From Nitrospira sp. (lineage in GTDB: Bacteria; Nitrospirota; Nitrospiria; SBBL01; JAADHI01), in assembly GCA_027020665.1 (NCBI GenBank), contig JALUVJ010000014.1, positions 466 through 64,465 of the forward strand: a DNA stretch of 64,000 nt. Reading direction: 5' to 3'. Shown piece after piece: positions 9,073 to 57,621 of the stretch. The position numbers and the translations under genes are program-made. Within the stretch, counting starts at the first letter, position 1. Every line of letters begins with the position of its first letter. The notes beneath the pieces are model-generated. The model had not been told where the DNA came from, did not search any database, and was given only the letters and a program-made list of their open reading frames with translations.

Positions 9073-12249
<3,177 letters not shown>

Positions 12250-19307: not shown

Positions 19308-19319
19308 ATCATGAAGCGG

Positions 19320-20528: not shown

Positions 20529-20536
20529 CGTTCCTC

Positions 20537-38693: not shown

Positions 38694-40322
38694 CTAAACG
38701 CTTTCCCGAATCATGTCGATGGCGCCGCAAGGGCATTCCTCCGCGCACATGCCGCAGCCCTTGCAATAATCCAGGTTAAATGCATAGCGCAACCCCGGTC
38801 CCAGCTTGATTACGGCGTTGTCCGGACAAACGCCGTAGCAGTTGTCGCACTCAAAACAGTTGCCGCAGGAGAGGCAGCGGCGGGCTTCCAACAGGGCGGT
38901 GTCTTCGCCGAGCCCGCCGACGACTTCGTCAAAACTTTTCCGGCGCCGGGCCATGTCCAAATAAGGTTGCTTGCTTTGATCGGCATCCGTGTAATACCAG
39001 GGGTTCAGCCGGTCGAAACTTGCGAGCGCGTGTTTTTTGGGCGGCTGATACGTCTTTCCGCGCAAATAGGCGTCGATGTGCCGCGCGGCCTTTTTCCCGT
39101 GGCCCGTCGCGACGGTCACCGTGCGCGCCGAGGGCACCATGTCGCCGCCGGCGAAAAGACCCGGCCGGCCCGTCATCATGCGCTCATCCACTTGAACCAC
39201 GCCGTCTTCGGAGACAAGCAGACCCGGCACGTTTCTTAAAAAATCGGCATCCACGTATTGGCCTAGGGCCAAAATCAGGGTGTCCGCCGCGATTGCTTCA
39301 AAACGCCCCGTGCCGACAGGACGCCCGTCTTCGTCCAAGGTCATTTCTTCCACTTGAAATTTTTCATCGGATCCCGAGGTGATGGTGCGCAGCCAGTGTA
39401 TTTGAATGCCTTCTTCCAGGGCTTCGGCCACTTCGAAATCGTGCGCCGGCATGTGTTCCCGATCCCGGCGGTAGATGATGACCGCTTCGTCCGCGCCCAG
39501 GCGTTTGGCCGTGCGCGCGGCGTCGATCGCCGTATTGCCGCCCCCGTAGACCGCGACGCGCCGTCCCAGCTTCGGCGGGGCGTCGCTTTCCATTTTTTCA
39601 AGAAACTGTACGGCGTCCAGGATTTTTCCTGCATCGCGCCCCGGAATGTCGGTGCGTTTTCCGATGTGCGCGCCGATGGCCAGGAAGGCCGCGTCAAAGC
39701 TTCCTTTTTCGAGTTCGGCTTGCAAGTCTTCCACTTTGTGATTGAGGTGGAGGGCGACCCCCATGGCCTCAATGCGCGCGACCTCGGCGTCCAAAATATC
39801 GCGCGGCAGACGGTAGGCGGGAATGCCGAAACGCATCATGCCGCCGATTTTGTTGCCCGCTTCGTAGAGGCTAACGGCGTGGCCGAGCCGCGTCAAATGA
39901 TAGGCCGCGGAAAGACCGCTCGGCCCGCCGCCGACGACCAAGACCTTTTTCCCGCTTTTCGATCCGGGTTCGAGCGTCCATTGTTTTTCAATCGCCAAGT
40001 CGCCGAGATATCGCTCGACGGCGTGAATGTTCACGGCTTCGTCCAATTCTCCCCGGTTGCAGGCGTTTTCGCAAGGGTGGTAGCAGACCCGTCCGTGAAC
40101 GGCCGGAAAGGGATTGTCCGCCATGAGTTTTTGCCAGGCTTCAAAGTACTTGCCTTCTTCCGCTTCGTAGAGCCAAGCCTGAATATTTTCTCCGGCGGGA
40201 CAGGCGGCGTTGCAGGGCGGGAGGCGATCCACGTAAACCGGCCGTTTGCTGCGCCAGAGGCCGGTGTGATTCTGCCGGCTGCTGTTGGGATCTAAGGTGA
40301 CGGCAAAAGGTTTTTGTTGCAT
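38694..40322 (-). CDS. GltD/NfnB-like NAD(P)H-dependent flavoprotein fused to a C-terminal 2x[4Fe-4S] ferredoxin domain
   Basis: 542 aa. Has N-terminal Cys clusters (CNAACPAGENIQ, CYHPCENACNRG) and two Rossmann motifs (VLVVGGGPSGLSAAY, VAVYGGGNTAIDAA). The C-terminus is CLSCGNCFECDNCYGVCP...CKGCGMCAEECPCGAI. Confidence 0.75.
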   Translation of the reverse strand: MQQKPFAVTLDPNSSRQNHTGLWRSKRPVYVDRLPPCNAACPAGENIQAWLYEAEEGKYFEAWQKLMADNPFPAVHGRVCYHPCENACNRGELDEAVNIHAVERYLGDLAIEKQWTLEPGSKSGKKVLVVGGGPSGLSAAYHLTRLGHAVSLYEAGNKIGGMMRFGIPAYRLPRDILDAEVARIEAMGVALHLNHKVEDLQAELEKGSFDAAFLAIGAHIGKRTDIPGRDAGKILDAVQFLEKMESDAPPKLGRRVAVYGGGNTAIDAARTAKRLGADEAVIIYRRDREHMPAHDFEVAEALEEGIQIHWLRTITSGSDEKFQVEEMTLDEDGRPVGTGRFEAIAADTLILALGQYVDADFLRNVPGLLVSEDGVVQVDERMMTGRPGLFAGGDMVPSARTVTVATGHGKKAARHIDAYLRGKTYQPPKKHALASFDRLNPWYYTDADQSKQPYLDMARRRKSFDEVVGGLGEDTALLEARRCLSCGNCFECDNCYGVCPDNAVIKLGPGLRYAFNLDYCKGCGMCAEECPCGAIDMIRESV

Positions 40323-40333
40323 GATGTTTTCTC

Positions 40334-41341
40334 TTATTCCGAATCGGGCGCTTCGATTAAGCCGTAGCGGGCGATGTTGTCATCCGCGATTTGTTGAATG
40401 GCGGCCAGCGTCTCTGTTTTTTTCGGTGGGCCGAAGAGGTGTTTGAATCGCCCCTGCAGCCTAAGATAATCCTCGACCGGCATTTTTTTCCGGATAGGGG
40501 TGACATCGGTCACTTTCCCGGACTCGGCCTCGAACACGGGAAAGAGTCCGGATTCGACGGCGGTCCGGGCCACCCGAATCGTGTGGGCGGGATCCGAGCC
40601 CCAGCCTAAGGGACAGGGCACAAAAATATGAATATAGCGCGCGCCGCGCATTTTCACGGCCTTCGTGACTTTGGCCTCCAAATCGTGCAGGTCGGCCACG
40701 GTCGCGGTCGCGACATAGGGGATGTCGTGCGCCATGGCGATGCGGGGCAGGTTTTTGCCCGTTTCAAAGCGGCTGCCGGGTGCGTCGCCCACCGCCTGTG
40801 TCGTCATCGTGCGCGCGGCGGGCGGCGTGGCGCCCGAACGCTGCACGCCGGTGTTCATATAGGCCTCGTTGTCGTAACAAATATAAAGCACGTCGTCGTT
40901 GCGCTCAAACATGCCGGAAAGACAGCCGAAGCCGATGTCCACCGTGCCGCCGTCTCCCCCCTGGGCGATGACTTTGCTCTGCGTCTTCCCTTTGGCTTTT
41001 AAGGCCGCGGCGACGCCGCTTGCGACCGCCGGCGCGTTGCCGAAGACCGAATGGATCCAGGGCAGTTGCCATGCGCTTTCCGGATAGGGGGTGGAAAACA
41101 CTTCGAGGCAGCCGGTGGCGTTGACGGCAATCACTTGATTGTTTGCGGCCCGCATCGCCGCATCCACGGCGTAGCGCGCGCCCAAGGCTTCGCCGCAGCC
41201 CTGACAGGCGCGGTGCCCCGAATTGAGCGAATTCGTGCGGGCGATGCCGGACTGCACGGTGCGAAGGGTCTCGTCCAGTAAGCGGTTTCCGACGGTAAAG
41301 GTGCCGGTCTGATAAAATTTGACAACTTGCTTCGACATCAT
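40334..41341 (-). CDS. 2-oxoacid:ferredoxin oxidoreductase beta subunit (TPP-binding)
   Basis: 335 aa with the CQGCGE Cys motif near the N-terminus and GDGGTVDIGF of the TPP-binding motif. Confidence 0.85.
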   Translation of the reverse strand: MMSKQVVKFYQTGTFTVGNRLLDETLRTVQSGIARTNSLNSGHRACQGCGEALGARYAVDAAMRAANNQVIAVNATGCLEVFSTPYPESAWQLPWIHSVFGNAPAVASGVAAALKAKGKTQSKVIAQGGDGGTVDIGFGCLSGMFERNDDVLYICYDNEAYMNTGVQRSGATPPAARTMTTQAVGDAPGSRFETGKNLPRIAMAHDIPYVATATVADLHDLEAKVTKAVKMRGARYIHIFVPCPLGWGSDPAHTIRVARTAVESGLFPVFEAESGKVTDVTPIRKKMPVEDYLRLQGRFKHLFGPPKKTETLAAIQQIADDNIARYGLIEAPDSE

Positions 41342-41351
41342 GTTTTTCGCG

Positions 41352-42605
41352 TTAATAAATCGGTTTGGCTTTCTTTCCCATTTCTTTCAAAATATTTTCC
41401 GCGCTGGGGCCGGAGGCCCGTTTCTCCCGCTGCCGCGCCAATTCACCGTGAATCACATCCCAATGCAAATCGAGAAAATGGGGCGAGTCCAGTTCTCCTT
41501 TTTGCGCCGCTTCGATCATTTTCTTGAGCGAAGCCTGCGTGACGGGCCGCCCGCCCAAACCGGCGATGACGGTCTGAATACGCAGGGGAAGCCCTTCAAG
41601 CGCCATTTTGACATCGGCGGCCAAGATGCCGCCGCGCCCCGCCGCGAGGGCCTTTTCAATCACAATCACGGTCTTCGCCCGGGCGACGGCGGTCCGGAGC
41701 GCCGCCGCGGGAAAGGGACGGTAGGAAACGATTTTAAGACAGCCGATCAAGTCCCCGGCGGCCCGCATTTGATCCGCAACTTCTCTCATCGTGCCCAATA
41801 CCGAACCCATCGCGATGATCACCGTTTCCGCATCTTCCAAGCGATCGGGAGACAGCAGTCCGCCTGAGCGGCGTGCAAAGTGCTTTTGAAAGGCCTCCGC
41901 CAAGTCCGGGATGCGGTTTAAGGCTTCCAGTTGTTTGTGATGCGCCAAATAACGCACCTCGGCAAAGGCCTCCGGTCCGACCATCGCGCCGATGGAAACG
42001 GGATCCGAAGGATCGAGTACCTGCACGGGATCATAGGGCGGCAGAAAGGCATCAACCGCCGCTTGCGCCGGCAGGTCGACGGCCTCAAAGGCGTGCGTCA
42101 AAATAAAGCCGTCCACACAAACCATCACGGGACAACTGAGCGCTTCGGCAAGATAAAAGGCCTGAATGTGTAGATCGACCGCCTCCTGATTGTCCTCGGC
42201 AAAGAGCTGTATCCAGCCCGCATCCCGCATCGCCATGGCATCAGAATGATCGTTCCAAATATTGATCGGCGCGCCGATGGCGCGGTTGCCGACGGTCATG
42301 ACAATCGGCAGCCCCAGACCCGAGGCATTGTAGAGGGCCTCGGCCATGAAGAGCAAGCCCTGGCTGGCCGTTGCGGTATAACTGCGCGCGCCGGTTGCCG
42401 AGGCGCCGATGAGCACACTCAAGGCGGCAAACTCCGACTCGACGTTTAAAAACTGCGTCGATCCCAATTCGCCTTTTTTGACCTTGGCCGAAAGCGTTTC
42501 GACGATATGCGTCTGCGGCGTAATCGGATAGCAGGAAATGACTTCGGGTCGACAGGCGGCGACGATCGCGGCGACGGCTTGCGATCCTTCAATTTGCCGC
42601 AGCAT
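41352..42605 (-). CDS. 2-oxoacid:ferredoxin oxidoreductase alpha subunit
   Basis: 417 aa with the YPITPQT motif at the N-terminus, in por/vor/kor alpha-subunit layout. Confidence 0.85.
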   Translation of the reverse strand: MLRQIEGSQAVAAIVAACRPEVISCYPITPQTHIVETLSAKVKKGELGSTQFLNVESEFAALSVLIGASATGARSYTATASQGLLFMAEALYNASGLGLPIVMTVGNRAIGAPINIWNDHSDAMAMRDAGWIQLFAEDNQEAVDLHIQAFYLAEALSCPVMVCVDGFILTHAFEAVDLPAQAAVDAFLPPYDPVQVLDPSDPVSIGAMVGPEAFAEVRYLAHHKQLEALNRIPDLAEAFQKHFARRSGGLLSPDRLEDAETVIIAMGSVLGTMREVADQMRAAGDLIGCLKIVSYRPFPAAALRTAVARAKTVIVIEKALAAGRGGILAADVKMALEGLPLRIQTVIAGLGGRPVTQASLKKMIEAAQKGELDSPHFLDLHWDVIHGELARQREKRASGPSAENILKEMGKKAKPIY

Positions 42606-43194
42606 GTGTCATCCCTCCTCCGGTCTCTTGTTGATGCTGTCGGACGTACAGATAGGCTTCTTTTGCGGCGGCGCTGTTCTTTTGGGCGATCGTCCCGGTG
42701 AAACGCTGTTGAACAGCTTCTTCCACGCTTTTTAAGGTGATTTGACCGGAAATCGCCGCAAATGCACCGACGAGGGCGATATTGGGCAGGGGCCGTCCGA
42801 TGTGTTTCAGCGCAATCCCTGTGGCGGGCAGGCCGCAGAAATGCCCGGCGGGAAAGGATGAAACAAAGTCCTCAATGCCCAGTGCCGCTGCATCGCGGGA
42901 GGCGTTGAGAATCAAACGGCCCGTTTCCGGGTTCAGCCCCGAAAAAAGATCGACGTGGTGCAGCAAGGTCGCATCCTGCACGATGACGGCATCGGCCTGC
43001 ATCACCGGTTCGCGCAGACGAATCTTTCGGTCGTCGATGCGACAGAAGGACATGACCGGCGCGCCCATGCGCTCTGAGCCAAAGCTCGGAAAGGCCTGGG
43101 CGAAACGGCCGTCCAAAAACGCGGCGACGGAAAGAATCTCCGCCGCGGTGACAACGCCTTGTCCGCCGCGCCCATGAATGCGGATCTGAAACAT
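42589..43194 (-). CDS. 2-oxoacid:ferredoxin oxidoreductase gamma subunit
   Basis: 201 aa starting IRIHGRGGQGVVTAAEIL, typical of gamma subunits. It is the first gene of the operon. Confidence 0.85.
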   Translation of the reverse strand: MFQIRIHGRGGQGVVTAAEILSVAAFLDGRFAQAFPSFGSERMGAPVMSFCRIDDRKIRLREPVMQADAVIVQDATLLHHVDLFSGLNPETGRLILNASRDAAALGIEDFVSSFPAGHFCGLPATGIALKHIGRPLPNIALVGAFAAISGQITLKSVEEAVQQRFTGTIAQKNSAAAKEAYLYVRQHQQETGGGMTHAAAN

Positions 43195-43366: not shown

Positions 43367-44833
43367 TTATTTCGGAATCAAATCCGCAAACACAGAGCTG
43401 GCGGTTACAGAGGCCTGAATGAAAGGATCGGGCCAGATACCCAGTAGGAGGACGCCTGCGATGCTGACGTAAATGGCGATTTTGAGCGGCGTCGAAATAT
43501 GGATCGGGGTGTATTCTTTCGGTTCGACAGAGTAGATCTTTTTGACGACGATGAGATAATAATAGAATGAAATGACCATGTTGATGAGCGCAACGGCAAC
43601 GATGAAGATGAGCCCCTGATGTACGGCGGCGACAACGACGTAAACTTTCCCGATGAATCCGGCCAGCGGCGGCACGCCCGCCAAGGAGAGTAAAAAGACC
43701 AGCATGGCGAAGGCCATTAAAGGCGAGCGCCGATTGAGTCCGACAAAATCGTCGATATCATCTTTGTCGGTTAAATTTTGGAAAATGATGACGACGACAA
43801 AGGCGCCAATGTTGGCAAAAAGATATGTGAGGATGTAGAAAAGAATAGATTCCACGCCCATTTGTGTGCCGGCGGCCATGCCGATGAGCACGGTGCCGAT
43901 ATGCGCGATGCCGGAGTAGGCCAAAAGGCGTTTCATGTTTTTCTGCGCGATGGCGGTGATGTTGCCGTAGGTCATGGATAAGACGGCAATCGAAACAATC
44001 ATCCATTGCCAGTCGGCTTTCAGTTCCAAGAAGGTGCCAAAAACAACACGCAGGAAAATCCCGAAGGTCGCCGCCTTCGGGACGACGGAAAGATAGGCGG
44101 TGACGGTTGTGGGTGCGCCCTGATAAACATCCGGTACCCAGACATGAAAGGGCACCGCGCCTAGTTTGTAGCCAATGCCGACAAAGATGAAAAGAAGTCC
44201 GATGGTGAGGCCGATGGTGTATTCGGGCGGGTTTGCGGCGATTTCTTCAAAAAGCAGAGTGCCGACTTCACCGTACACCAGAGAAACGCCGTAGGCGATC
44301 AAGGCGGCTGAAAGGGCACCCAGGATAAAAAATTTGATCGCTGCCTCGTTGGATTTCAGGTTGTCACGTAAGTAGGCGACGAGAATGTAAAATCCAAAGG
44401 TTGAGAATTCCAGGGTGATGAAAAGGGACAAAAAGTCATTTGCGGAGACCATGAACATCATGCCGAGTGCTGAAAAAAGCAGCAGGAAATAATATTCTCC
44501 CCGGAAATAAGGGATCTTTTCCATGGCCTCGATGGAGGCCAAAATCATCACGATGGTTGAAAGCAAAATGAAGATCTTGAAAAAGATCGCCAGAGGATCC
44601 AGCACAAACATGCCGCTGAAAGAAGTGCCGCCGGTGCCGTCGATGCCGTAGCCGATGAGTTGAAGGGTAATCAAGGCCATACCTGAGACGGAGAAATAGG
44701 CCAATTTGGGTTTTGAGAGTTTTGGGCAAAAGACGTCCATCATCAAAACAACGCAAGAGAGCAGTGTCATCCACAGTTCCGGTGCGATGAGCCGTAGGTT
44801 CAGGTCGGCAAGGGTCATAATTTCGGGCGTCAT
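43367..44833 (-). CDS. nuoN: NADH-quinone oxidoreductase subunit N
   Basis: 488 aa polytopic protein with FITLEFS (TM5 Glu), FHVWVPDVYQGAPT and KRLLAYSGIAHIG. It is the last gene of the locus. Confidence 0.85.
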   Translation of the reverse strand: MTPEIMTLADLNLRLIAPELWMTLLSCVVLMMDVFCPKLSKPKLAYFSVSGMALITLQLIGYGIDGTGGTSFSGMFVLDPLAIFFKIFILLSTIVMILASIEAMEKIPYFRGEYYFLLLFSALGMMFMVSANDFLSLFITLEFSTFGFYILVAYLRDNLKSNEAAIKFFILGALSAALIAYGVSLVYGEVGTLLFEEIAANPPEYTIGLTIGLLFIFVGIGYKLGAVPFHVWVPDVYQGAPTTVTAYLSVVPKAATFGIFLRVVFGTFLELKADWQWMIVSIAVLSMTYGNITAIAQKNMKRLLAYSGIAHIGTVLIGMAAGTQMGVESILFYILTYLFANIGAFVVVIIFQNLTDKDDIDDFVGLNRRSPLMAFAMLVFLLSLAGVPPLAGFIGKVYVVVAAVHQGLIFIVAVALINMVISFYYYLIVVKKIYSVEPKEYTPIHISTPLKIAIYVSIAGVLLLGIWPDPFIQASVTASSVFADLIPK

Positions 44834-46461
44834 TTTATGCTCTCGTCTCCAATGTGGGTGCTCAGCTTTGTTTGTTGCGCGATGGCGCTTCCGGCTGTGC
44901 TGTCAAATCGGGCCAAAATAGGGGTAACGCCTTTTTCGATCACGCTGATAAATTTCCCCGGAAAGATGCCGAAAAAGAGCGTGAAGAAGACCAGAAGCAC
45001 GAGCGGAAGGCGCTCATACCAGCTGCGCGCGTCTTTGACGTCGGGCAGGGCCGGATTGAGTTTTCCAAAAAACATGGTGCGCGTCATGCGAAAATAGTAG
45101 GCCCAGGTGATGACAACAGCGAGGGCGGCGATGATGGTTTGAATCGGATAAATTTCCCAGGCGCCCATGAAAACCATGATTTCACCCACAAAGTTCATGC
45201 CGCCGGGCAGGCCGAAGGAGGCCGCTCCACCGACCACAAAACAGGCGGTGACAAAAGGCATCTTATGTACGAGCCCGCCCAAAGAAGGGATATCCAAGGT
45301 CTTGGCCTGATAATAAATAAAACCCGCAAGCGCGAAGAGCAGCCCCATGGCCATTGCATCGGCAAAAAGGAAGAAGACGGCGCCTGTTAGGCTGATGGTA
45401 TTGAGTGAGGCCATTCCTAAAAAAATATATCCCATATGCCCCACGGAGGAATAACCCACGACAAACTTGGTGTCTTTTTGCAAAAAGGCGACGAGGCCGC
45501 CGTAGATAATGTTAAAAATACAAATAATGGCCACAAGCGGCATCCATTCAGCCGTGGCTTCCGGAAAGAGATAAAAACAAATCCGGATAATGGTAAAGTG
45601 CCCCAGTTTTTTCAAAACCCCCGCATGCATCATGCTGGCGGCAGGCGGTGCCGCTGCGTAACCTACGGGAGACCAGGAATGAAAGGGAAAAATCGCTGCA
45701 ATGGGGGCAAAGCCGATAAAAATGAGGAGAAAACCGATTTCTTTGACCCCCAGTGATAGGTTTCCTTTTTCACCGATTTCAAGCAGGTCAAAGGTATTCA
45801 ACCCGCTTTTTACGTAAACAAGCAGGATGCCCATGAGGGCGACGACGGCGCCGAATGAGAGATAAAGCGTCAACTTCATCGCCGCGTATTCTTTGCTGTT
45901 TTTATTGAAATTCAGGATGAAGCCGACTGATTCTCTTTTTTCCTCTCCGGCCAGATTGATATGGCCTTTCATGTCTTTGTAGCCCTTTGTGTGTCGGCCC
46001 CACATGATCAGGAAGAGATACATGGGGATCACGGAAAGCTCATAAAAGAAGAAAAGGAAAAAAAGATCCAGCGACATGTAAACTCCCATTGTCGCCGAAC
46101 CGAGTACGAGCAGGTTGATATAAAATTCTTTCAGGCGGTCTTTAATATCCCAGGAGACAAAAACGCCGCAAAACATGAGCAGGGCGGAGGCCAAGACCAT
46201 CGGCGTCCCGATGCCGTCAACGCCTAAATAAAAGGAGATGCCGAGCGTTTGAGACCAAACGGTTCGACTGATAAATTGAAAACCGCCTTGCGAGACATCG
46301 AAGGTATAAAAAAGGTAAAGCGATGCCAATAAAGAGAGCCCGCTAAAAAAGGCTGCGATGCCCCGCACGACATCCTTTTGCGTATTCGAAATAAAAAACA
46401 GAACCGTCGCACCCGCAAACGGGGCAAAGAGAATGATCGATAAGAGGTAGTCGTTGATCAT
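44830..46461 (-). CDS. Divergent NuoM-like antiporter subunit (second M copy)
   Basis: 543 aa with FFFYELSVIPMY, FHSWSPVGYAAAPPAASMMHAG and VVGYSSVGHMG. A ~35-residue hydrophilic insert lies after TM5, relative to the neighbouring canonical NuoM. Confidence 0.75.
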   Translation of the reverse strand: MINDYLLSIILFAPFAGATVLFFISNTQKDVVRGIAAFFSGLSLLASLYLFYTFDVSQGGFQFISRTVWSQTLGISFYLGVDGIGTPMVLASALLMFCGVFVSWDIKDRLKEFYINLLVLGSATMGVYMSLDLFFLFFFYELSVIPMYLFLIMWGRHTKGYKDMKGHINLAGEEKRESVGFILNFNKNSKEYAAMKLTLYLSFGAVVALMGILLVYVKSGLNTFDLLEIGEKGNLSLGVKEIGFLLIFIGFAPIAAIFPFHSWSPVGYAAAPPAASMMHAGVLKKLGHFTIIRICFYLFPEATAEWMPLVAIICIFNIIYGGLVAFLQKDTKFVVGYSSVGHMGYIFLGMASLNTISLTGAVFFLFADAMAMGLLFALAGFIYYQAKTLDIPSLGGLVHKMPFVTACFVVGGAASFGLPGGMNFVGEIMVFMGAWEIYPIQTIIAALAVVITWAYYFRMTRTMFFGKLNPALPDVKDARSWYERLPLVLLVFFTLFFGIFPGKFISVIEKGVTPILARFDSTAGSAIAQQTKLSTHIGDESIK

Positions 46462-46661
46462 GCCTTGTCCTTAAAACAGATTTCCGCTACATCGAGTGTT
46501 GCGCGACGTGTGAAGGCCAATATTTGTGTCAGCATGGCCATCAGGCTTTCTTGAAGGGCCTCGCGTGAGTTTGCGTGGCAGTTCACGCCGGGGACTTCTT
46601 CTACCCAGCCGACCCAGACTCTGGCATCTTGTTTGAGAATCGCCGTATATTTTTGTTGCAA
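46458..46661 (-). CDS. HicB-like (UPF0150-type) small protein embedded in the nuo operon
   Basis: 67 aa. KYTAILKQDARVWVGWVEEVPGVNCHANSREALQESL fits the HicB-like antitoxin pattern (beta-strands, E-x-PG, then a T/S-x-E-E-A-L helix). The TTG start lies 13 nt after the nuoM stop, with GGAG upstream. The stop overlaps the next gene start (ATGA). Confidence 0.55.
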   Translation of the reverse strand: MQQKYTAILKQDARVWVGWVEEVPGVNCHANSREALQESLMAMLTQILAFTRRATLDVAEICFKDKA

Positions 46662-46674
46662 GTTGTGTTGCTCC

Positions 46675-48252
46675 TTACTTTCTAAGTGCGAATTTGGATG
46701 ATGTTTCCGGTACCGTCGTTTCTGTAATTACCGTGGCGGTGCCAAGCCGATCCGTAATAAATTGTACGGAGCCATCCATCATTTTTAAAAAGGGGAAGGG
46801 ATAAATCCCCATCCAGAGAATCACGACCGTAAGCGCGGTGCAAATACCGATCTCGATGCGATCCAAATCGACAAGGGTTTTATTTTTCGGATTCTTCAAT
46901 TCCCCCATCATCAGACGTTGATACAGCCAGAGCAGATAGGCTCCGGCAAGCAAGACTCCGATGAAAGCGGGGGCGGCAAGTTGCCAAGAGTTTTTCATTG
47001 CGCCGATGAGGATCATCAATTCCCCCACAAAACCGTTTGTGCCTGGGAAGGCCAGTGAAGACAAGCTGATAATGAGGTAAAACACTGCCAAAATGGGCAC
47101 CTGTTTTGCGAGGCCGCCGTATTCCGAAATCTCCCGCGTGTGGCGGCGGTTGTAAAGAAAACCGACGACAAAAAAGAGTCCGGAAGTAGAGATCCCGTGG
47201 TTAATCATTTGAATGATACCGCCTTGGATGCCGTCGGCGTTCAGGGCAAAAATCCCTAAAATCACAAAACCCAGATGGCTGATGGAGGAATAAGCAATCA
47301 GCTTTTTCATGTCGTTTTGCGCAAGTGCGAGCAGTGCGCCGTAGATGATGCCGATGACGCCCAAAATCGACATGAGCGGCATAAAATAAAGTGAGGCTTC
47401 CGGCAATAAAGGCAAGGAAAAACGCACAAAGCCGTAAGTCCCCATCTTCAAAAGCACTCCGGCCAGCAGCACACTGCCTGTTGTGGGTGCTTCGACGTGT
47501 GCATCCGGCAGCCATGTGTGAAAAGGAAACATCGGCACTTTAAACGCAAAACCGAAAAAGAGCAGCGTAAAGACCCACATTTGTTTTGTTCGGGTAAGCG
47601 GTGCTCTCAATAAATCAAGAAAATCAAAAGAATAAGTGCCTGTTGCGCTGTGATGATTTAAATACAGAATGACAAAACCCACCAACATCAGCACACTGCC
47701 CAAGAGCGTGTAGAGCACGAATTTTAAAGAGGCGTAATTGCGCCGCTGCCCGCCCCAGGTTTTAATCAGGAAGTACATCGGGATCAGCATGATTTCCCAC
47801 AAGAGAAAAAAGAGAAAGAGATCCAGTGCGCAGAACACTCCGATCACGGTTGTCTCTAAGACAAGCAGACAGATGATATATTGTTTGAAATAGTTCTTGA
47901 TGCCCTTCCAGGAGAACCCCAGGGTCAAGACCGAAAGAAAGGTGGTGAGTACAACCAGCAGAATGCTCACGCCGTCCACACCGACATGGTAGCTAATACC
48001 CAGGGGGGCGATCCAATCATAACGTTCAGCGAATTGAATATCCGAGGTGCCGTTCTGAAAAAGAATGAGCGGAATGAGCGATAAAACAAATGAAGCAAGC
48101 GTAGCCAAAAGGGCAATCTGACGAATTTGCTGAGCATCCTTCATGAGGGAGACCAAGACGGCGGCGGCGAGCGGAATAAAAATTGTGAGGCTTAAGACCG
48201 GGAAGCCGACTTGACTGCTTGCGAATATTTCACCCAATGTGCTCAACATCAA
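46675..48252 (-). CDS. nuoM: NADH-quinone oxidoreductase subunit M (canonical copy)
   Basis: 525 aa with FLLWEIMLIPMYFLI, FHTWLPDAHVEAPTTGSVLLAGVLLKMG and KKLIAYSSISHLG. Confidence 0.9.
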   Translation of the reverse strand: MMLSTLGEIFASSQVGFPVLSLTIFIPLAAAVLVSLMKDAQQIRQIALLATLASFVLSLIPLILFQNGTSDIQFAERYDWIAPLGISYHVGVDGVSILLVVLTTFLSVLTLGFSWKGIKNYFKQYIICLLVLETTVIGVFCALDLFLFFLLWEIMLIPMYFLIKTWGGQRRNYASLKFVLYTLLGSVLMLVGFVILYLNHHSATGTYSFDFLDLLRAPLTRTKQMWVFTLLFFGFAFKVPMFPFHTWLPDAHVEAPTTGSVLLAGVLLKMGTYGFVRFSLPLLPEASLYFMPLMSILGVIGIIYGALLALAQNDMKKLIAYSSISHLGFVILGIFALNADGIQGGIIQMINHGISTSGLFFVVGFLYNRRHTREISEYGGLAKQVPILAVFYLIISLSSLAFPGTNGFVGELMILIGAMKNSWQLAAPAFIGVLLAGAYLLWLYQRLMMGELKNPKNKTLVDLDRIEIGICTALTVVILWMGIYPFPFLKMMDGSVQFITDRLGTATVITETTVPETSSKFALRK

Positions 48253-48264
48253 CGATTCCGCTTT

Positions 48265-50130
48265 CTAGTAAATTGCAACCATCCAGGTGGCCAGTTGTTT
48301 CCCGACCAGCAAATAAAGGTTCACCAAAACAAAGATGCCCACGATAATAATCATGGCGTAGTTATGGACCGATCCCGTTTGAAGCTTTTTGAAAATATGT
48401 GCGGCAATGTGATTCATGTAGCCGACGATGTTGATAAAGGCATAAACGACATATTTTTCAAAAAAGTTTGAAAACCAGGCACCGCCGAAAACGCCGCGCC
48501 CGATTTCATTCACCACGCGGTCGATCACAGCGATATCAAAGCGGCGGCAAAGTGCAACAAACCGCTTTGTGGGCCGGATGATCGCGCCTTTATATACCTC
48601 GATAATAAATTCTTCCCAGAGGGCAGTCGGCCCTTGTGCAAACTTCATAAAGCAAATGCCGCTTTTTCGGTAAAACCAATCGACATCAAGACTGATCGTC
48701 GCTTTGGGCCGCAGCTTTTCGACAAAGAAAAGAAAAGCCAAGGCCGCCGTCAACAGGATTTGAAACTGTACGAGCACATGACTGACTGTAAAGGTATGAT
48801 ATTCCACATCGGCATAAGGCAGCATGTCGATCAAGATATGCGGCTGTATGCCGATCAAAAAGCAAAGCATTGCGGCAAGGCTCATGCCGATGAGCATATT
48901 CGGCGGCGGGTCGGTGACCTTGAGTTGTTTGTCACGCCCGACGAATACATTAAAAGGCAGTTTCAAAGTCGTTGAAAGAAAGGTACCCGAAGCCGCCATT
49001 GTTAATAAGAGTGTTGTGATGGGACGATGCGCTTCGGCGGCGCCCGCGATAATCATGCCTTTGCTGACAAAACCGTTAAAAAGCGGCACGCCGGAAATTG
49101 AAAAACCTCCGATCATGTAGAGAACGGCGGTATAGGGCATTACTTTGCCGAGACCGCCGAGCTCCGTGGCTTTGCGTTTTCCCGTCATGTGAATGACTGC
49201 GCCCATGCCCATCATTAGCAGCCCTTTAAAAAGGATATTGTTGACGGCATGGGCCACTGCGCCGTTAATGGCGAGTTCCGTGCCGACCCCTACGGCGGCA
49301 ACCATGTATCCGACCTGAGAGATGATATGGTACGAGAGCAGCCGTCGTACATCATTTTCGATAATGGTCATGCAGACTCCGAAAAGAGTCATAAAGAGAC
49401 CGATAGAAACCAAGACTTCCACCCCCGGAAACCCGCGCACCAAAGTATAAACAGCGACTTTTGTCGTAAAGGTCGCAAGCCAAATCGTTCCCGTGACACT
49501 GCCTTCGGGATAAGCGTCGGGCAGCCAGGCGTGAAGCGGCGGCCCGCCTGCATTCACCAAAAATCCAAAGAGCATCAAGCCGCCGGCCCAGCCGCCGGGT
49601 GAAATGGCGTTAAAGCCGATGTCTCCGGTATTGACCACATGCACAATGATGCCGCCGAGTAGAAGCACACCACCCAGGGTGTGAATCAGCAAGTAACGAA
49701 AACCGGCTTGGACCGATCGGGCCGAACCGCCAAAGCAGATAATGAAGACCGAAGAGAAGGACATGATTTCCCAAAAGAAAAAGAGGGAAAAAAGGTCTCC
49801 GGCAAAAACCGCCCCCATTGCGCCGCCCGCATAAACGAGTGCCGCAATATGTTCGCGAATTGTCTTAAGATGGAATCCGTAAATCATGCCGATGAAAACG
49901 ATCACGGCGAAAATATAAGCAAAAACAAGACTCAGCTTGTCCACCCGGCCAAAGATCAGTTCCTGTCCCATGAGAGAAATGATGCCGTGAAGGCCTTCCG
50001 GTGTGTAATAAAGCGGCAGCAGGCAAAGTAAGGGTGCGCCGAGCAGAACCGTCTTTCGTTTCATTTCATCTAAAAAGGGCAGTGCGGCCGCCGCAATAAA
50101 GAAGAAGAGCGCAGGATGAACCCATATCAT
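48265..50130 (-). CDS. nuoL: NuoL-like antiporter subunit with C-terminal lateral-helix region
   Basis: 621 aa with FFFWEIM and LHAWLPDAYPEGSVTGT. The C-terminal ~140 aa carry VIDRVVNEIGRG ... KKLQTGSVHNYA plus a final TM, the NuoL signature. Confidence 0.75.
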   Translation of the reverse strand: MIWVHPALFFFIAAAALPFLDEMKRKTVLLGAPLLCLLPLYYTPEGLHGIISLMGQELIFGRVDKLSLVFAYIFAVIVFIGMIYGFHLKTIREHIAALVYAGGAMGAVFAGDLFSLFFFWEIMSFSSVFIICFGGSARSVQAGFRYLLIHTLGGVLLLGGIIVHVVNTGDIGFNAISPGGWAGGLMLFGFLVNAGGPPLHAWLPDAYPEGSVTGTIWLATFTTKVAVYTLVRGFPGVEVLVSIGLFMTLFGVCMTIIENDVRRLLSYHIISQVGYMVAAVGVGTELAINGAVAHAVNNILFKGLLMMGMGAVIHMTGKRKATELGGLGKVMPYTAVLYMIGGFSISGVPLFNGFVSKGMIIAGAAEAHRPITTLLLTMAASGTFLSTTLKLPFNVFVGRDKQLKVTDPPPNMLIGMSLAAMLCFLIGIQPHILIDMLPYADVEYHTFTVSHVLVQFQILLTAALAFLFFVEKLRPKATISLDVDWFYRKSGICFMKFAQGPTALWEEFIIEVYKGAIIRPTKRFVALCRRFDIAVIDRVVNEIGRGVFGGAWFSNFFEKYVVYAFINIVGYMNHIAAHIFKKLQTGSVHNYAMIIIVGIFVLVNLYLLVGKQLATWMVAIY

Positions 50131-51620
50131 TGGATCACCCCCTTTGCCAGCATCATGAAATAACTCGGAAAGAGACCGATCAAAAGCGAAAGCGTCGCGG
50201 TAACGACGAGCGGCACAACGACAAAATAAGGGGCTTCTTTAATGTCATCGTGGTGAATGCCGTAATTGCCCTCGGCCTCTGCCGAGCGGTCTGCGGGTTT
50301 GTGAAAAAAAGCCTTAAAAATGATGGGCACAAAATAGCCGACATTAAGCACCGTGCTTGCGAGCAGGACAAAAAGAATCGGAATTTGATCGGCTTCAATA
50401 CTGCCGAGCGCCAAGTACCATTTTGTAATAAAACCCGCCGCCGGCGGCACGCCGATCATGCTCAGGGTGCCGATGGCAAAAGCCGTCATTGTCCAGGGCA
50501 TTTTACGTCCGATGCCGTTGAGTTCGCTGATCTTGATTTTGTGTGTCGCCACATAAATCGACCCCGCACAGAAAAAGAGGGTGATTTTGGAAAAGGCATG
50601 GTTTGCAATGTGTATCACACTGCCCGTCATGCTGCTGGGTGTCAACAAGGCCGCGCCCAGAATGATATATGAAAGCTGACTTACGGTGGAATAGGCAAGC
50701 CGTGCTTTGAGATTATCTCGTGTGAGTGCGTAAACGGATGCCGTGATAATCGTGAATGACACAAAAAAAGCGGTTGGGATGCCCAAATGAAGTGATTGCA
50801 TCAAATCGACACCGAAGACATGAAAGATGATGCGCAACACGGAAAAGACGCCGACCTTCACAACCGCCACGGCGTGTAACAAAGCACTGACAGGCGTGGG
50901 CGCAACCATTGCTGCAGGCAGCCAGGCGTGAAAAGGCATGATGCCTGCTTTGGCGATGCCTGCGATAAAAAGAATGTAGATAACAGTCAACATCATCGGC
51001 GAGCCTTGACCGGAAAAAAGACCGTCTTGGGCAAAATCGAGGGTGCCCGCAACATTGTAGGTTAAAATCAACGCGGCCAGGAAAAAGGTTTTTGAGGTGC
51101 CGAAAAGGTAGATCATGTATTTTTTGGCACCCTCGAAAGAAGTCTGTGTGCCCTTGTGATTGACGAGCGGAAAGGTGAAAAAACTCAAAATTTCATAGAA
51201 AATAAAGAGTGTAAGCAAGTTTGCCGAAAGAGCAACGGCTAAGGCGGAAGAGACGCTGATGGCAAAACAGGAAAAATAGCGGGTCTGATGGATTTCTTTG
51301 GCCGTTCGCATGTAGCCGATGGAATAACAGGAGGTGATAATCCAAAGAAAAGAAGCGACGGTCGCAAAAAAGAGCCCCAGCGCATCCGCCTTAAAGGCAA
51401 TGGCAAGGCTCGGCACAAAGGTGAAAAGCGTGTATTCAAACGCGCCGCCGGCGAGCACATGCGGGGCCATTGAAATCACGATGAAAAAGGTGATTACCCC
51501 TGCGCCAATCGAGACGCCTTCTCTCAGATTGGGATCTTTGTCAAACTTTAAAACAATCCCTGCCGCGATCATCGAGACAAGTACGGCCAAAAGGGGCCTG
51601 ATCGATTCAACTGCTTCCAC
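50127..51620 (-). CDS. Additional MrpD/NuoL-M-N-family antiporter-like subunit
   Basis: 497 aa with FIFYEILSF, FHAWLPAAMVAPTPVSALLHA and ARLAYSTVSQLSYI. It has no lateral-helix tail. The stop overlaps the nuoL-like start (ATGA). Confidence 0.7.
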   Translation of the reverse strand: MEAVESIRPLLAVLVSMIAAGIVLKFDKDPNLREGVSIGAGVITFFIVISMAPHVLAGGAFEYTLFTFVPSLAIAFKADALGLFFATVASFLWIITSCYSIGYMRTAKEIHQTRYFSCFAISVSSALAVALSANLLTLFIFYEILSFFTFPLVNHKGTQTSFEGAKKYMIYLFGTSKTFFLAALILTYNVAGTLDFAQDGLFSGQGSPMMLTVIYILFIAGIAKAGIMPFHAWLPAAMVAPTPVSALLHAVAVVKVGVFSVLRIIFHVFGVDLMQSLHLGIPTAFFVSFTIITASVYALTRDNLKARLAYSTVSQLSYIILGAALLTPSSMTGSVIHIANHAFSKITLFFCAGSIYVATHKIKISELNGIGRKMPWTMTAFAIGTLSMIGVPPAAGFITKWYLALGSIEADQIPILFVLLASTVLNVGYFVPIIFKAFFHKPADRSAEAEGNYGIHHDDIKEAPYFVVVPLVVTATLSLLIGLFPSYFMMLAKGVIQ

Positions 51621-51651: not shown

Positions 51652-51954
51652 TTACCACTTCATCAAGTTGAGTTCGTCAACATTCGTGACGGCTTTTCTA
51701 CGGAAGAGTACGATGATAATCGCAAGTCCGACCGCAGCCTCGGCCGCAGCAACCGTGATAATAAAAAGCGAAATCACTTGGCCGTCGATTGCGCCGTAAT
51801 GCCGCGAAAAGGCCACCAGGTTGATATTGGCCGCATTCAACATCAGTTCGATGGAAAATAAAATGATCAAAAAATTTTTCCGAATCAGCACGCCCACCAA
51901 TCCCACGACAAACATAATGGTGGAGACTGCAACGTAATAAGACAAAGGAATCAT
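51652..51954 (-). CDS. nuoK: NADH-quinone oxidoreductase subunit K
   Basis: 100 aa from the MIPLSYY start, with three TM helices. Has LFSIELMLNAANINLVAF and AAAEAAVGLAI motifs. The longer ORF-track form overlaps nuoJ and is rejected. Confidence 0.85.
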   Translation of the reverse strand: MIPLSYYVAVSTIMFVVGLVGVLIRKNFLIILFSIELMLNAANINLVAFSRHYGAIDGQVISLFIITVAAAEAAVGLAIIIVLFRRKAVTNVDELNLMKW

Positions 51955-51964: not shown

Positions 51965-52474
51965 CTAACGTGCGGGGACTTTTTTCGCCAAAACCAATGC
52001 CCCGATGACGGCGCCCAGCAAGATAACCCCCACAATTTCAAAGGGCAATAAATATTTAGTAAAAAGCGCGATCCCGATTTGTGCCGTATTGCCCAGGGTG
52101 TCTTCGGTGATCGGGCCTGTTTCGGGCGCGGAAGAAAACAGAGGGGATTGAAAAAGGCCGATTAATATTTCAAAAATCAGCACGACCCCGAAAAAGATCG
52201 CGATGCCCACTTGTTTGTGTAAAAATTTTTCTGCGGTTTTTAAATCCAGCAGCATGATGACAAAAATATACAAAACGAGCACGGCCCCGGCATACACGAT
52301 GACTTGCAGCGCCGCAATAAATTCCGCGTGTAAGAGTACAAAGAGACCTGCCACGTGCAGCAAGGTCGAAAGCAGGGCAAGCGAGCAATAAACGGGACTT
52401 CTTAAGCCAATCGTCAGAATAGATGAAACAATGGTGAGGGTCGCAAAATAGATGAAAAAAAGGAGTTCAACCAT
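51965..52474 (-). CDS. nuoJ: NADH-quinone oxidoreductase subunit J
   Basis: 169 aa with the AALQVIVYAGAVLVLYIFVIMLL motif. Confidence 0.85.
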   Translation of the reverse strand: MVELLFFIYFATLTIVSSILTIGLRSPVYCSLALLSTLLHVAGLFVLLHAEFIAALQVIVYAGAVLVLYIFVIMLLDLKTAEKFLHKQVGIAIFFGVVLIFEILIGLFQSPLFSSAPETGPITEDTLGNTAQIGIALFTKYLLPFEIVGVILLGAVIGALVLAKKVPAR

Positions 52475-52480: not shown

Positions 52481-53056
52481 TTACTTTTTCTCTTCCTGTT
52501 CAGGTTCTTCTTGCCGTGAAGAGGGGAAACGATAACGATATTGACTTACGACCTCTTCATCTTCGCCTTCTTGATTGTGGGCAACGAGATATCCCTTTGC
52601 TTCGCGGTGCAATTTTTCGCCGATATCGTAGAGCTTCGTTTTATCGAAAATCAGATCTCTTTTATTGATGGTTGAATATTCATACATCTTGGTCATGGCC
52701 AAGGCGTTGACCGGGCAGGCCTCAACACAAAACCCGCAGAACACACATTTTGTAATATCAATATCAAAAGAGCTGGCATATCGTCTGACGACATATCCGT
52801 CTTTTTCATCCACTTCACTCACAACGGTAATACAAGCAGATGGGCAGGCCGCACCGCAAAGATCGCAGCCGACACAACGTTCTTCCTGACTTTCCTCATA
52901 TCGTAAGAGGCACAGCGCACCCCGTTGCGTATTGGGGAGAGCTGTTTTTTCATGTGGATATTGAAGCGTTACCTCTTTTACGAAGTAGTGACTGAAAACC
53001 AGCTTCAAAGCCTTCACGATTTCCACAAAAAGGAAGTTGTAGAGAATTTTTCTCAC
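52481..53056 (-). CDS. nuoI: NADH-quinone oxidoreductase subunit I (2x[4Fe-4S]), with acidic C-terminal tail
   Basis: 191 aa with CVGCDLCGAACP and CVFCGFCVEACP. Confidence 0.9.
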   Translation of the reverse strand: MRKILYNFLFVEIVKALKLVFSHYFVKEVTLQYPHEKTALPNTQRGALCLLRYEESQEERCVGCDLCGAACPSACITVVSEVDEKDGYVVRRYASSFDIDITKCVFCGFCVEACPVNALAMTKMYEYSTINKRDLIFDKTKLYDIGEKLHREAKGYLVAHNQEGEDEEVVSQYRYRFPSSRQEEPEQEEKK

Positions 53057-55851: not shown

Positions 55852-57066
55852 TTATCGATCACACTCACCCATGACGATGTCATAGGTGCCGAAAATCGTA
55901 ATAATATCGGCGATCATATAACCTTTCGCCATATGATCAAAGGCGCCCATGTGCACAAAAGAAGGGGCGCGGATTTTCATACGGTAAGGTTTTCCGCCGC
56001 CTTGACTGACAATGTAAAAACCCAATTCGCCTTTGTGGGCTTCGGTTCCGCAATAGATATCGCCTTCGGGGGCGTTAAAACCGCCGGAATACAGTTTAAA
56101 TTGATAGATCATGCTTTCCATATCGGTGAAAACCCGTTCTTTGTCCGGCGCGACAAACTTCGGTAAATAGGCTTTATAAGGGCCTTTCGGCAGTTGGTCC
56201 AGGCATTGGCGGATGATTTTGCTGCTCTCTTTCATCTCTTCCATGCGGATCCAGTAACGGTCGTAGGTATCGCCTTTTGTGCCCAGGGGCACGGTCCACT
56301 CGACATGGCCGTATGCGCCGTAAGGACTGACTTTTCTGAGATCGTAGTCCACACCGGAGCCGCGCAAGGTCGGCCCCGTGAGGCCGTATGCGATGGCGTC
56401 CTCACCCGAAATCACCGCGATGTCTTTTGTGCGGGCCAGCCAGATCCGGTTTCGAATGAGCAAGGCATCGTATTCGGCGATTTTTTCGGGAAAGCTGTCG
56501 ATGAATCGGTATAAATCGTCGATAATTTTGTCGGTGAAATCCCGTTCGACGCCGCCCACACGGTACCAAGAGGTTGTCAAACGTGCGCCGCATAAATCGA
56601 CAAAGAGATCCAAAAGCACTTCACGATCCCGAAAGGTAAAAAAGAAGACTGTCATCGCGCCGATATCCAGGGCCTGCGTGCCGAGCCAGAAGAGGTGGCC
56701 GATGATGCGCTGGACCTCCGCGACGATGGTACGCAGGTATTCGGCGCGCCAGGGCACGGTGATGTCGAGCAGCTTTTCCACGGCGCGCACATAGGCGAAG
56801 TTGTTGTACATGGCGCAAATGTAATCCAGCCGGTCGGTGTGCGGGATGAATTGATTGTAGGTGATTTGCTCCGCGATTTTTTCGACGCCGCGATGCAGAA
56901 AGCCCAGTACCGGTTCGGACTTGATGACTTTTTCTCCTTCAAGCGTCACGATGACTTTCAGCACCCCGTGTGTCGAGGGATGCTGCGGGCCGAGATTCAG
57001 CAGGACCTCTTCCGTTTTTAGCAGCGGAAGCGATGCTTCTTCGGTCGGTGGGTTTTCTACAGCCAT
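55852..57066 (-). CDS. nuoD: NADH-quinone oxidoreductase subunit D
   Basis: 404 aa with LNLGPQHPSTHGVLKV and the C-terminal DIVMGECDR. Confidence 0.9.
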   Translation of the reverse strand: MAVENPPTEEASLPLLKTEEVLLNLGPQHPSTHGVLKVIVTLEGEKVIKSEPVLGFLHRGVEKIAEQITYNQFIPHTDRLDYICAMYNNFAYVRAVEKLLDITVPWRAEYLRTIVAEVQRIIGHLFWLGTQALDIGAMTVFFFTFRDREVLLDLFVDLCGARLTTSWYRVGGVERDFTDKIIDDLYRFIDSFPEKIAEYDALLIRNRIWLARTKDIAVISGEDAIAYGLTGPTLRGSGVDYDLRKVSPYGAYGHVEWTVPLGTKGDTYDRYWIRMEEMKESSKIIRQCLDQLPKGPYKAYLPKFVAPDKERVFTDMESMIYQFKLYSGGFNAPEGDIYCGTEAHKGELGFYIVSQGGGKPYRMKIRAPSFVHMGAFDHMAKGYMIADIITIFGTYDIVMGECDR

Positions 57067-57084: not shown

Positions 57085-57621
57085 TTAATGTGGAAAATCA
57101 AAGGTATCTCGCCACCCTCGCCCCTGAATCGGAAAATTCTTCCGCAAGGGGTAGCCTTCATCGTATTCATCCGGCAGCAGAATACGTTTCATCTCGGGGT
57201 GATTGTTGAAACGAATGCCCATCATATCGTAAACCTCACGCTCCAAGTAATTGGCCCCTGCCCAAAGCGGGGTTACGGAATCAATGACACAATCATCTTC
57301 GGGCACGCGGGTTTTGAGGCGGATCTGGTGTTTTTTGCGAATGGAATAAAATTCATACACGACTTCAAAACGTTCCGCTTCGTTAGGAAAATCCACGGAA
57401 CTGATATGTATGGGATAATCAAAATCAAGTGCGGGGTCTTCTTTCAAAAAACGGCAGATCGAGAAGAGGCCCTCCCGTTTTAAATGGATCGAAAGATCGT
57501 CTCTAAAAAGCGTGGCGCCAATATAAAAATCGGCAAACTCCGCTTGGATTTTTTGGGCAAGCGGGTGATCTGCGCCGTTTTTCATGCCGCGAGGCACTTT
57601 AAAGGGTTTGGCTTTTCTCAT
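57085..57621 (-). CDS. nuoC: NADH-quinone oxidoreductase subunit C
   Basis: 178 aa from MRKAKPF, whose ATG overlaps the nuoB stop (ATGA). Has [16 protein letters not shown] and the LLPDEYDGYPLRK-like end. Confidence 0.8.

Follow-up and report, generated by a model that had tools for sequence, protein, structure and literature searches.

Organization of the complex I operon

The 64,000-nucleotide (64-kb) stretch of contig JALUVJ010000014.1 examined here (Nitrospira sp., assembly GCA_027020665.1), hereafter called the window, carries a compact complex I operon on its minus strand with five genes for antiporter-like membrane subunits. The gene order is nuoA-B-C-D-G-I-J-K, followed by genes for MrpD1, MrpD2, NuoM, a protein of 67 amino acids (aa), a second NuoM, and NuoN (Table 1), and all 13 nuo/mrp-like genes are intact. 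We refer to the five antiporter-like proteins as P1 (MrpD1), P2 (MrpD2), P3 (NuoM), P4 (second NuoM), and P5 (NuoN), or as modules 1 to 5. A preliminary description of this DNA had listed five open reading frames (ORFs) with these coordinates, lengths, and orientation and had proposed that all of them encode antiporter-like subunits of a single complex I. Both points held: the five ORFs are where they were placed, and the Proton_antipo_M family (Pfam PF00361) matches each product over nearly the whole profile, with E values from 4e-43 to 2e-82. The motif strings that had been quoted for the glutamate context in transmembrane helix 5 (TM5) (FIFYEIL, FFFWEIM, FLLWEIM, FFFYELS, and FITLEFS) and for the HxW element (FHAWLPAA, LHAWLPDA, FHTWLPDA, FHSWSPVG, and FHVWVPDV) are all present as well. 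None of the five genes had been taken for an obvious pseudogene, in agreement with their intact reading frames and full-length homologs at 57 to 90% identity.

Gene order and junctions support a single operon. The nuoK and P1 genes are 31 nucleotides (nt) apart, the P1 and P2 genes overlap by 4 nt, about 12 nt separate the P2 and P3 genes, and the P4 and P5 genes again overlap by 4 nt. The earlier characterization of the five genes as tightly coupled is therefore accurate for these overlaps and gaps of at most about 30 nt, but not for the 213 nt between the P3 and P4 genes, which are the sole loose junction among the module genes and contain the 67-aa ORF that had been overlooked. Near the start of the operon, the nuoC reading frame is open to position 57705, and the gene call on an identical Logan contig (L082) gives a 178-aa protein whose gene overlaps the end of nuoB.

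Table 1. Coordinates of the complex I operon and its downstream neighbor in the window
Feature	Coordinates	Strand	Evidence or remark
nuoA, first gene of the operon	58088..58468	-	Pfam PF00507 Oxidored_q4, 2e-38
nuoB	57618..58097	-	Pfam PF01058, 6e-29
nuoC	57085..57621	-	Pfam PF00329, 1e-41
nuoD, 49-kDa quinone-module subunit	55852..57066	-	TIGR01962, 531 bits, above cut-off
nuoG-like, enlarged, 931 aa	53053..55848	-	Pfam Fer2_4, NADH-G_4Fe-4S_3, Fer4_Nqo3, Molybdop_Fe4S4, Molybdopterin, Molydop_binding
nuoI	52481..53056	-	NF004538, 143 bits, above cut-off; 4-nt overlap with nuoG
nuoJ	51965..52474	-	Pfam PF00499, 4e-37
nuoK, 100 aa (gene call in the window's own copy, L001)	51652..51954	-	Pfam PF00420, 7e-28
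P1, module 1, MrpD1, 497 aa	50127..51620	-	NF006236, 736 bits, cut-off 663
P2, module 2, MrpD2, 621 aa	48265..50130	-	NF009310, 656 bits, cut-off 564
P3, module 3, canonical NuoM, 525 aa	46675..48252	-	TIGR01972, 600 bits
67-aa ORF between both nuoM genes	46458..46661	-	Weakly HicB/UPF0150-like; conserved position in sister species
P4, module 4, second NuoM of 2M type, 543 aa	44830..46461	-	TIGR01972, 406 bits, with insertion
P5, module 5, NuoN, 488 aa	43367..44833	-	TIGR01770, 428 bits, above cut-off
2-Oxoacid:ferredoxin oxidoreductase PorC, PorA, PorB and GltD-like protein	38694..43194	-	NCBIfam; 172 nt downstream of nuoN

Family identity of the five modules

Families were assigned from the scores of curated hidden Markov models (HMMs), using the NCBIfam/TIGRFAM cut-offs, together with a ranking against solved structures in the PDB. 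A reading of the five proteins as NuoL, NuoM, and NuoN with extra copies of these needs to be revised. None of the five has a NuoL family as its best match by curated HMM score; instead, NuoL is replaced by two Mrp/Mbh-like proteins scoring above cut-off in NF006236 (P1) and NF009310 (P2), both named "cation/H+ antiporter subunit D." NuoM, a second and divergent NuoM, and NuoN come next in the operon. The best solved-structure matches of P1 are NdhF (6hum_F), MbhH, MrpA, and NuoL, and the protein consists of a NuoL/MrpA/NdhF-like core with neither a C-terminal extension nor a lateral helix. P2 is closest to MbhH, MBS subunits, and MrpD, with NuoL reaching only about 1e-16, and its MbhH/MrpD-like core is followed by TM15, a long lateral helix, and TM16, in a C-terminal extension that ends in an LQTG motif. 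Judged from these assignments, the role of NuoL is split between the L/MrpA-like core of P1 and the MrpD/MbhH-like core plus lateral helix of P2.

P4 is recognizably a NuoM (8qby_M, 2.7e-62) and has an insertion of about 30 to 31 aa after TM5, at residues of about 156 to 190 (RHTKGYKDMKGHINLAGEEKRESVGFILNFNK...), that is rich in charged residues and is absent from both the first NuoM (P3) and the NuoM chains of solved structures.

Correspondence to known complex I types

We consider it highly probable, on sequence grounds, that the operon encodes the known complex I type called Complex_I_3, which combines the backbone of the clade-3 2M complex I with the two-gene NuoL replacement of the "green" type. 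Complex_I_3 was described from "Ca. Manganitrophaceae" (Yu, Chadwick, Lingappa, and Leadbetter, mBio 2022, PMC9040806). Its two MrpD-like subunits have their relatives in the green complex I of rhizobia, its two NuoM and single NuoN have theirs in the 2M complex I of Nitrospira, and a conserved 26-aa insertion lies in the amphipathic helix of its MrpD2; the complex is common to the freshwater genus and the marine sister genus of that family. Gene set and gene order are the same in the window operon, NuoE, NuoF, and NuoH are absent from both, and the 26-aa MrpD2 insert is found in both. Protein identities to the copy in "Ca. Manganitrophus" sp. GAC4 (L007) range from 55 to 86%. The assignment draws on family membership, gene order, the 26-aa insert, residue patterns, and phyletic pattern together with the published description. 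A complex I with five modules was reportedly first noted in 2020 for "Ca. Manganitrophus noduliformans."

The window differs from the freshwater genus in some respects. Its MrpD2 is just 57 to 60% identical to the MrpD2 proteins of "Ca. Manganitrophus," the 67-aa ORF between its NuoM genes is absent from freshwater "Ca. Manganitrophus," and the 2-oxoacid:ferredoxin oxidoreductase cluster downstream of the operon has no counterpart at that position in "Ca. Manganitrophus" sp. GAC4. The exact MrpD2 protein of the window is deposited in NCBI, JGI, ENA, and Logan, on a contig of up to 112,893 bp. The closest named cluster to the window's MrpD2, at 87% identity, includes a "Ca. Manganitrophaceae bacterium" protein and a hydrothermal-vent metagenome sequence, and the window probably derives from the marine genus of "Ca. 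Manganitrophaceae." It therefore adds another genome copy of a published five-module complex I, probably from the marine branch, and is not a discovery of that enzyme. To the published work the present analysis adds that two module families lack the TM7 lysine, that a 67-aa ORF is conserved inside the operon in the marine lineage, and that lateral-helix length and module number do not match.

The clade-3 2M enzyme of Nitrospira (Chadwick et al. 2018 via PMC6606698 and PMC12342949) shares with the window a duplicated NuoM, the lack of nuoE, nuoF, and nuoH, an enlarged NuoG, NuoC and NuoD as separate proteins, and a lateral helix of increased length; the absence of the three genes and the enlargement of nuoG in clade-3 operons are stated by Mundinger et al. 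(PMC6606698). P4 is 57 to 61% identical to Nitrospira proteins and shares with them an invariant isoleucine at the TM7 lysine position. The Nitrospira 2M enzyme has a single lengthened NuoL and four modules, whereas the window has two Mrp-like proteins in place of NuoL and five modules. In the green complex I, which rhizobia share with many other bacteria (Degli Esposti and Martinez-Romero 2016, cited in PMC9040806), two MrpD-like genes after nuoK replace nuoL, as they do in the window. These green-type proteins are 44 to 62% identical to the window's, and their MrpD2 carries the lateral helix and the invariant asparagine at the TM7 position. Green complex I has one NuoM, four modules, and mostly no 26-aa insert, and nuoE and nuoF are present in many of the four-module loci; the window, by contrast, has a second NuoM and lacks nuoE and nuoF.

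The preliminary description had mentioned a 2M type in Nitrospirae and a variant with two additional modules in a Mn-oxidizing Nitrospirota genome, and both statements are correct (PMC9040806). It had been unsure whether the arrangement with NuoG but without NuoE, NuoF, and NuoH had been reported; that arrangement is published for clade-3 2M (PMC6606698) and the whole five-module cluster for "Ca. Manganitrophaceae."

Distribution of multimodule operons

A synteny survey, which the preliminary description had proposed, was carried out with one genome per species by a profile search with an MrpD2 alignment, and BLAST synteny was determined for 81 loci among the matches listed. The survey placed the MrpD1/MrpD2 pair between nuoK and nuoM in 51 other genomes among these matches. 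The four-module form, with the order D1-D2-M-N inside nuo operons, accounted for 51 of the 81 loci and spanned many phyla, and with at least 51 species-level genomes the families concerned are widespread. Of the 51 fetched four-module loci, 36 had a detectable nuoH; in the others the gene may lie beyond the 10-kb flanks. Another 15 loci consisted of D1/D2 pairs lacking the lateral helix (HL-less) and without nuo neighbors, and 12 were truncated or unclassifiable.

Among the matches listed, the five-module form was represented by three loci, L001 (the window's own copy), L007 ("Ca. Manganitrophus"), and L004 (a Nitrospirota metagenome-assembled genome [MAG]), and within this sample it is confined to the neighborhood of "Ca. 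Manganitrophaceae." The order A-B-C-D-G-I-J-K-D1-D2-M-M2-N without nuoE, nuoF, and nuoH recurs in "Ca. Manganitrophus" sp. GAC4 and, at about 88% identity, in a sister species (L083/L084). More generally, the layout lacking nuoH is kept across genera at about 57% to 90% protein identity (L007, L083, and L085).

In L004 (Nitrospirota MAG binchicken_co341_26, positions 63 to 7840), K-D1-D2 is followed by a 754-bp gap, M, and M2; NuoN is missing, and the next genes encode cytochrome c and anthranilate synthase. The arrangement may be an assembly artifact or a real variant, and the same MAG has a separate four-module locus (L008). The 15 pairs without nuo neighbors, each with a D1-like protein and an HL-less D2-like protein of about 500 aa, are those of L010 and L019 ("Ca. 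Manganitrophaceae"/"Ca. Manganitrophus") and of 13 other loci; in Manganitrophus they may be the MrpD-like pair that has been published as part of the TO_2 terminal-oxidase cluster.

Lateral helix of MrpD2

A MAFFT alignment of P2 with five rhizobial and several other four-module MrpD2 proteins revealed a 26-aa insert in its lateral helix, AWFSNFFEKYVVYAFINIVGYMNHIA. The block was seen only in Nitrospirota proteins and is absent from the rhizobial, Desulfobacterota, Burkholderiaceae, and other four-module homologs compared. An AlphaFold2 monomer of P2 (mean predicted local distance difference test score [pLDDT], 75) has a confident core, and pLDDT falls below 60 in the lateral-helix region and the C terminus; predicted helices include TM15 at residues 449 to 469, long helices at 484 to 549 and 558 to 584, and a final TM at 589 to 620. 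The model thus lends weak support to a predicted helical stretch of about 95 residues.

Five-module operons are not the only ones with the insert, since it already occurs in the MrpD2 proteins of two Nitrospiria/Nitrospirota MAGs (L005 and L006) that have four-module D1-D2-M-N operons, along with nuoE, nuoF, nuoG, and nuoH (identified with Pfam in L006 and by BLAST similarity to L006 in L005). A third layout, in L085 (GCA_029261155.1, JAJDBW010000025.1, positions 9694 to 16719; also in L086), consists of A-B-C-D-G-I-J-K, a 104-aa protein, MrpD2, NuoM, a second NuoM, and NuoN. The 104-aa protein, which has two helices and matches no family, replaces MrpD1, and the 650-aa MrpD2 carries two 26-aa inserts in its lateral helix, making it the longest helix among the loci compared, in a complex of four modules. 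The idea that one lateral-helix insert corresponds to one extra subunit fails on these cases: L005 and L006 combine an insert, and L085 two inserts, with four modules.

Charged residues of the antiporter-like modules

Residues important for proton translocation were audited in HMMER alignments to solved chains and in MAFFT alignments, taking as the TM7 lysine the equivalent of E. coli NuoM K234, seven residues before the motif histidine. The TM5 glutamate, the HxW motif, and the central TM8 lysine are kept in P1 to P5, and P1 also has the TM8 histidine. At the TM12 position P1, P2, and P5 have lysine, and P3 and P4 have glutamate. The TM7 lysine is found in P1, P3, and P5 and is replaced by Asn193 in P2 and by Ile254 in P4. 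The canonical charged set (TM5 Glu, TM7 Lys, TM8 Lys/His, and TM12 Lys/Glu) is accordingly complete in modules 1, 3, and 5 and incomplete in modules 2 and 4. Of the earlier statement that all five proteins keep the key residues, the part concerning the TM5 glutamate and the HxW motif stands, and the exception is the TM7 lysine; the loss of key charged residues in alignment, which had been named beforehand as evidence against the proposal, is restricted to this lysine in modules 2 and 4.

Both replacements are invariant or nearly so in their families, with asparagine in 134 of 135 homologs of P2, rhizobial ones included, and isoleucine in all 118 homologs of the second NuoM, those of Nitrospira included. 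In both families the TM5 glutamate, the central TM8 lysine, and the TM12 Lys/Glu are invariant. The pattern indicates that the TM7 substitutions are constrained family traits rather than decay. P4 has furthermore lost the TM11 histidine and gained an invariant NuoL-like histidine in TM8 (His279). A text search of the literature on the second NuoM turned up nothing relevant.

With the TM7 lysine missing from two modules, the count of one proton per module is an assumption, and for this reason we doubt that all five modules each move one proton. It is possible, though we think it rather unlikely, that MrpD1, NuoM, and NuoN would be the only proton-translocating subunits, with MrpD2 and the second NuoM serving as relay, spacer, or scaffold that extends the charged axis and carries or accommodates the lateral helix. 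Apart from the family-wide replacements and the missing TM11 histidine of the second NuoM, this possibility gains from the presence of the TM7 lysine in all solved relatives in the printed alignments (MbhH, the MBS subunit, MrpD, NuoM, and NDH-1 subunit 4), the closest ones among them, and from the requirement for E. coli NuoM K234 for activity in canonical complex I. Against it, the invariance of the remaining charged residues in both proteins argues for a conserved charge-transfer role, not a passive spacer, the invariant NuoL-like TM8 histidine of the second NuoM could compensate for the loss, and the demand of about 6 H+ for electron transfer from quinol to ferredoxin (see below) fits five active modules. 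A related idea, which we regard as unlikely, is that both extra modules would serve as electrostatic relays or rely on some other gating chemistry; both lack the TM7 lysine, the partner of the TM5 glutamate in every characterized antiporter-like subunit, and along the predicted arm this position alternates as K-I-K-N-K. If they do, the published stoichiometries (5 H+ in 2M and green complexes, 6 H+ in the five-module one) would be wrong, and the enzyme would constitute a natural experiment on the transmission of the coupling signal through the membrane arm. The residue audit provides a concrete reason to test the widely repeated assumption of one extra proton per extra module.

NuoD, the NuoG-like subunit, and the absent NuoE, NuoF, and NuoH

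The quinone-site residues of NuoD are conserved, as both the histidine of HPSTHG and the following tyrosine align with those of Aquifex NuoCD (7q5y_B, the best PDB match, 1e-130). The NuoG-like protein retains 2Fe-2S and 4Fe-4S motifs, with N1b-, N4-, N5-, and N7-type cysteine motifs, and contains a formate-dehydrogenase-like molybdopterin domain. Among NCBIfam models it scores higher with Fdh-alpha (465 bits) than with NuoG (363 bits), both below the curated cut-offs. When read manually against the FdhH motif, the sequence AARYGHMNS presumably has a glycine at the Cys/Sec position of formate dehydrogenase. With this glycine and an Fdh-alpha score below cut-off, a catalytic formate dehydrogenase role of the subunit appears unlikely.

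The preliminary description had NuoG present and NuoE, NuoF, and NuoH absent, and Pfam and tblastn searches over the operon and the 64-kb window agree. Queries from a related locus found no nuoH, nuoE, or nuoF in the whole window with tblastn (best E value, 0.31), and NuoH from L006 as the tblastn query likewise had no match in the 64 kb (best E value, 1.3). The 4-nt overlap between nuoG and nuoI leaves no room for nuoH between these genes.

Proposed function and alternative readings

Complex_I_3 has been proposed to work in reverse, with an inward flow of 6 H+ per 2e- that reduces ferredoxin (PMC9040806), and the idea in the preliminary description that additional modules could drive electrons further uphill is the one already published there. 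In such a scheme, proton-motive force would drive the transfer of quinol electrons onto ferredoxin or a similar low-potential acceptor, for use in the reverse tricarboxylic acid (TCA) cycle; we give this reverse, ferredoxin-reducing role an even chance. The membrane arm would run in the order NuoN, second NuoM, NuoM, MrpD2, and MrpD1. We place MrpD1 distally because the D2 helix of four-module forms, going by overall protein lengths, appears to be no longer than that of NuoL, and the MrpD2 helix would clamp back across the NuoM pair. NuoH would be supplied by another nuo operon of the same genome; "Ca. Manganitrophaceae" have also been reported to carry canonical complex I copies (PMC9040806).

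With potentials of about +113 mV for quinone and about -320 to -398 mV for ferredoxin (PMC9040806), we computed a demand of about 0.87 to 1.02 eV per two electrons, equivalent to about 5 to 7 H+ at a proton-motive force of 150 to 180 mV, which agrees with the proposed 6 H+ per 2e-. The five-module complex I would have the largest known membrane arm of its enzyme family and, as already published, represents a proposed means for Mn(II)-oxidizing autotrophs to lift electrons by nearly a volt to ferredoxin.

Several points weigh against reading the operon as a five-module Complex_I_3 that drives electrons to ferredoxin. With no NuoH in the 64 kb, a functional quinone site would need a gene outside the window. 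The TM7 lysine, which in canonical modules is the partner of the TM5 glutamate, is replaced in two modules, and a stoichiometry based on five pumps may be too high. In L005/L006 and L085 the length of the lateral helix is out of step with the number of pump genes, which weakens an argument from insert to subunit. The adjacency of the 2-oxoacid:ferredoxin oxidoreductase cluster fits the ferredoxin idea, yet the neighbor is not conserved, making the adjacency coincidental or lineage specific. Membership in "Ca. Manganitrophaceae" is deduced from sequence similarity to named MAGs. Finally, five-module complex I is known from genomes alone, and the direction, partner, and stoichiometry of the 2M, green, and five-module enzymes are hypotheses.

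A forward direction, in which the enzyme would oxidize reduced ferredoxin or another low-potential donor with quinone and so save more energy for each electron pair than the canonical enzyme does, seems improbable to us. The sequence itself does not set the direction, enzymes of the complex I type are reversible, and the absence of NuoE and NuoF is shared with the ferredoxin-oxidizing NDH-1 of cyanobacteria. On the other side, the lineages with five modules are inferred or shown to be Mn(II)-oxidizing reverse-TCA autotrophs, which need reduced ferredoxin and use a very high-potential donor (PMC9040806), and a 2-oxoacid:ferredoxin oxidoreductase adjoins the operon in the window, although that adjacency is not conserved.

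That the cluster is an incomplete, nonfunctional remnant without NuoH, NuoE, and NuoF is very improbable. The window encodes no NuoH, and no complex I-like quinone site is known to lack this subunit. Against decay stand the 13 intact genes, a layout without nuoH that persists across genera in spite of protein identities down to about 57%, and the invariance of family-specific residues. The homologous cluster of Nitrospira moscoviensis, a 2M type that also lacks nuoH, is moreover transcribed above the median level (PMC6606698).

We reject on synteny the idea that the 497-aa and 621-aa proteins form a separate Mrp-type cation/proton antiporter that merely adjoins the nuo genes, even though the curated families that fit them best bear the name "monovalent cation/H+ antiporter subunit D," MbhH, MrpD, and MrpA are among their solved-structure matches, and the 15 HL-less paralog pairs occur without nuo neighbors elsewhere: no mrpB, mrpC, mrpE, mrpF, or mrpG gene is present or would fit into the short junctions from nuoK to nuoM, neither P1 nor P2 has the MrpA C-terminal domains (PF13244 and PF20501), the helix-bearing pair lies between nuoK and nuoM in 51 of the 81 loci, and an operon without P1 and P2 would have no lateral-helix subunit. 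Such a separate Mrp complex, which the preliminary description had named as an outcome that would speak against it, was thus not found. The likeness to Mrp (CPA3) antiporters and to the MBH and MBS arms concerns the cores of modules 1 and 2, which among solved structures are closest to MbhH, MBS subunits, MrpD, MrpA, and NdhF, whereas the window lacks MbhA-G-type genes as well and embeds the pair in a nuo operon.

The 67-aa ORF and neighboring genes

The 67-aa ORF starts with TTG behind an AAGGAG ribosome-binding site, 13 nt after the P3 stop codon, and its own stop codon overlaps the ATG of the P4 gene. It has weak matches to DUF1902/UPF0150 (HicB-like) and only five homologs in a large protein collection, one of them annotated as a HicB-family nuclease. 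It occupies the same position in the sister species (L083/L084), with 78% aa identity and with 19 synonymous versus 15 nonsynonymous codon changes. This HicB-like protein of the marine lineage could be a lineage-specific accessory subunit.

The GltD-like member of the downstream oxidoreductase cluster is a 542-aa FAD/iron-sulfur (FeS) protein fused to a PorD-like dicluster domain (NF009410, 766 bits). A promoter-like site lies upstream of the cluster, at positions 43257 to 43228, and the cluster is probably a separate transcription unit; in the scan for promoters and terminators, the terminator-like matches all fell inside coding sequence and were uninformative. A conserved functional link between the complex I operon and this oxidoreductase was considered and rejected, as the neighbor differs in L083 and L007. 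A fatty-acid cis/trans isomerase gene (PF06934) is convergent with the oxidoreductase cluster. The window from 7322 to 23403 and from 36267 to 38618 has an ordinary housekeeping look, with a resistance-nodulation-division (RND) efflux pair (HlyD_D23 plus AcrB), a response-regulator diguanylate cyclase, a beta-oxidation-like set (acyl-CoA synthetase, thiolase, and acyl-CoA dehydrogenase), an HtrA-type protease, and a ClC channel.

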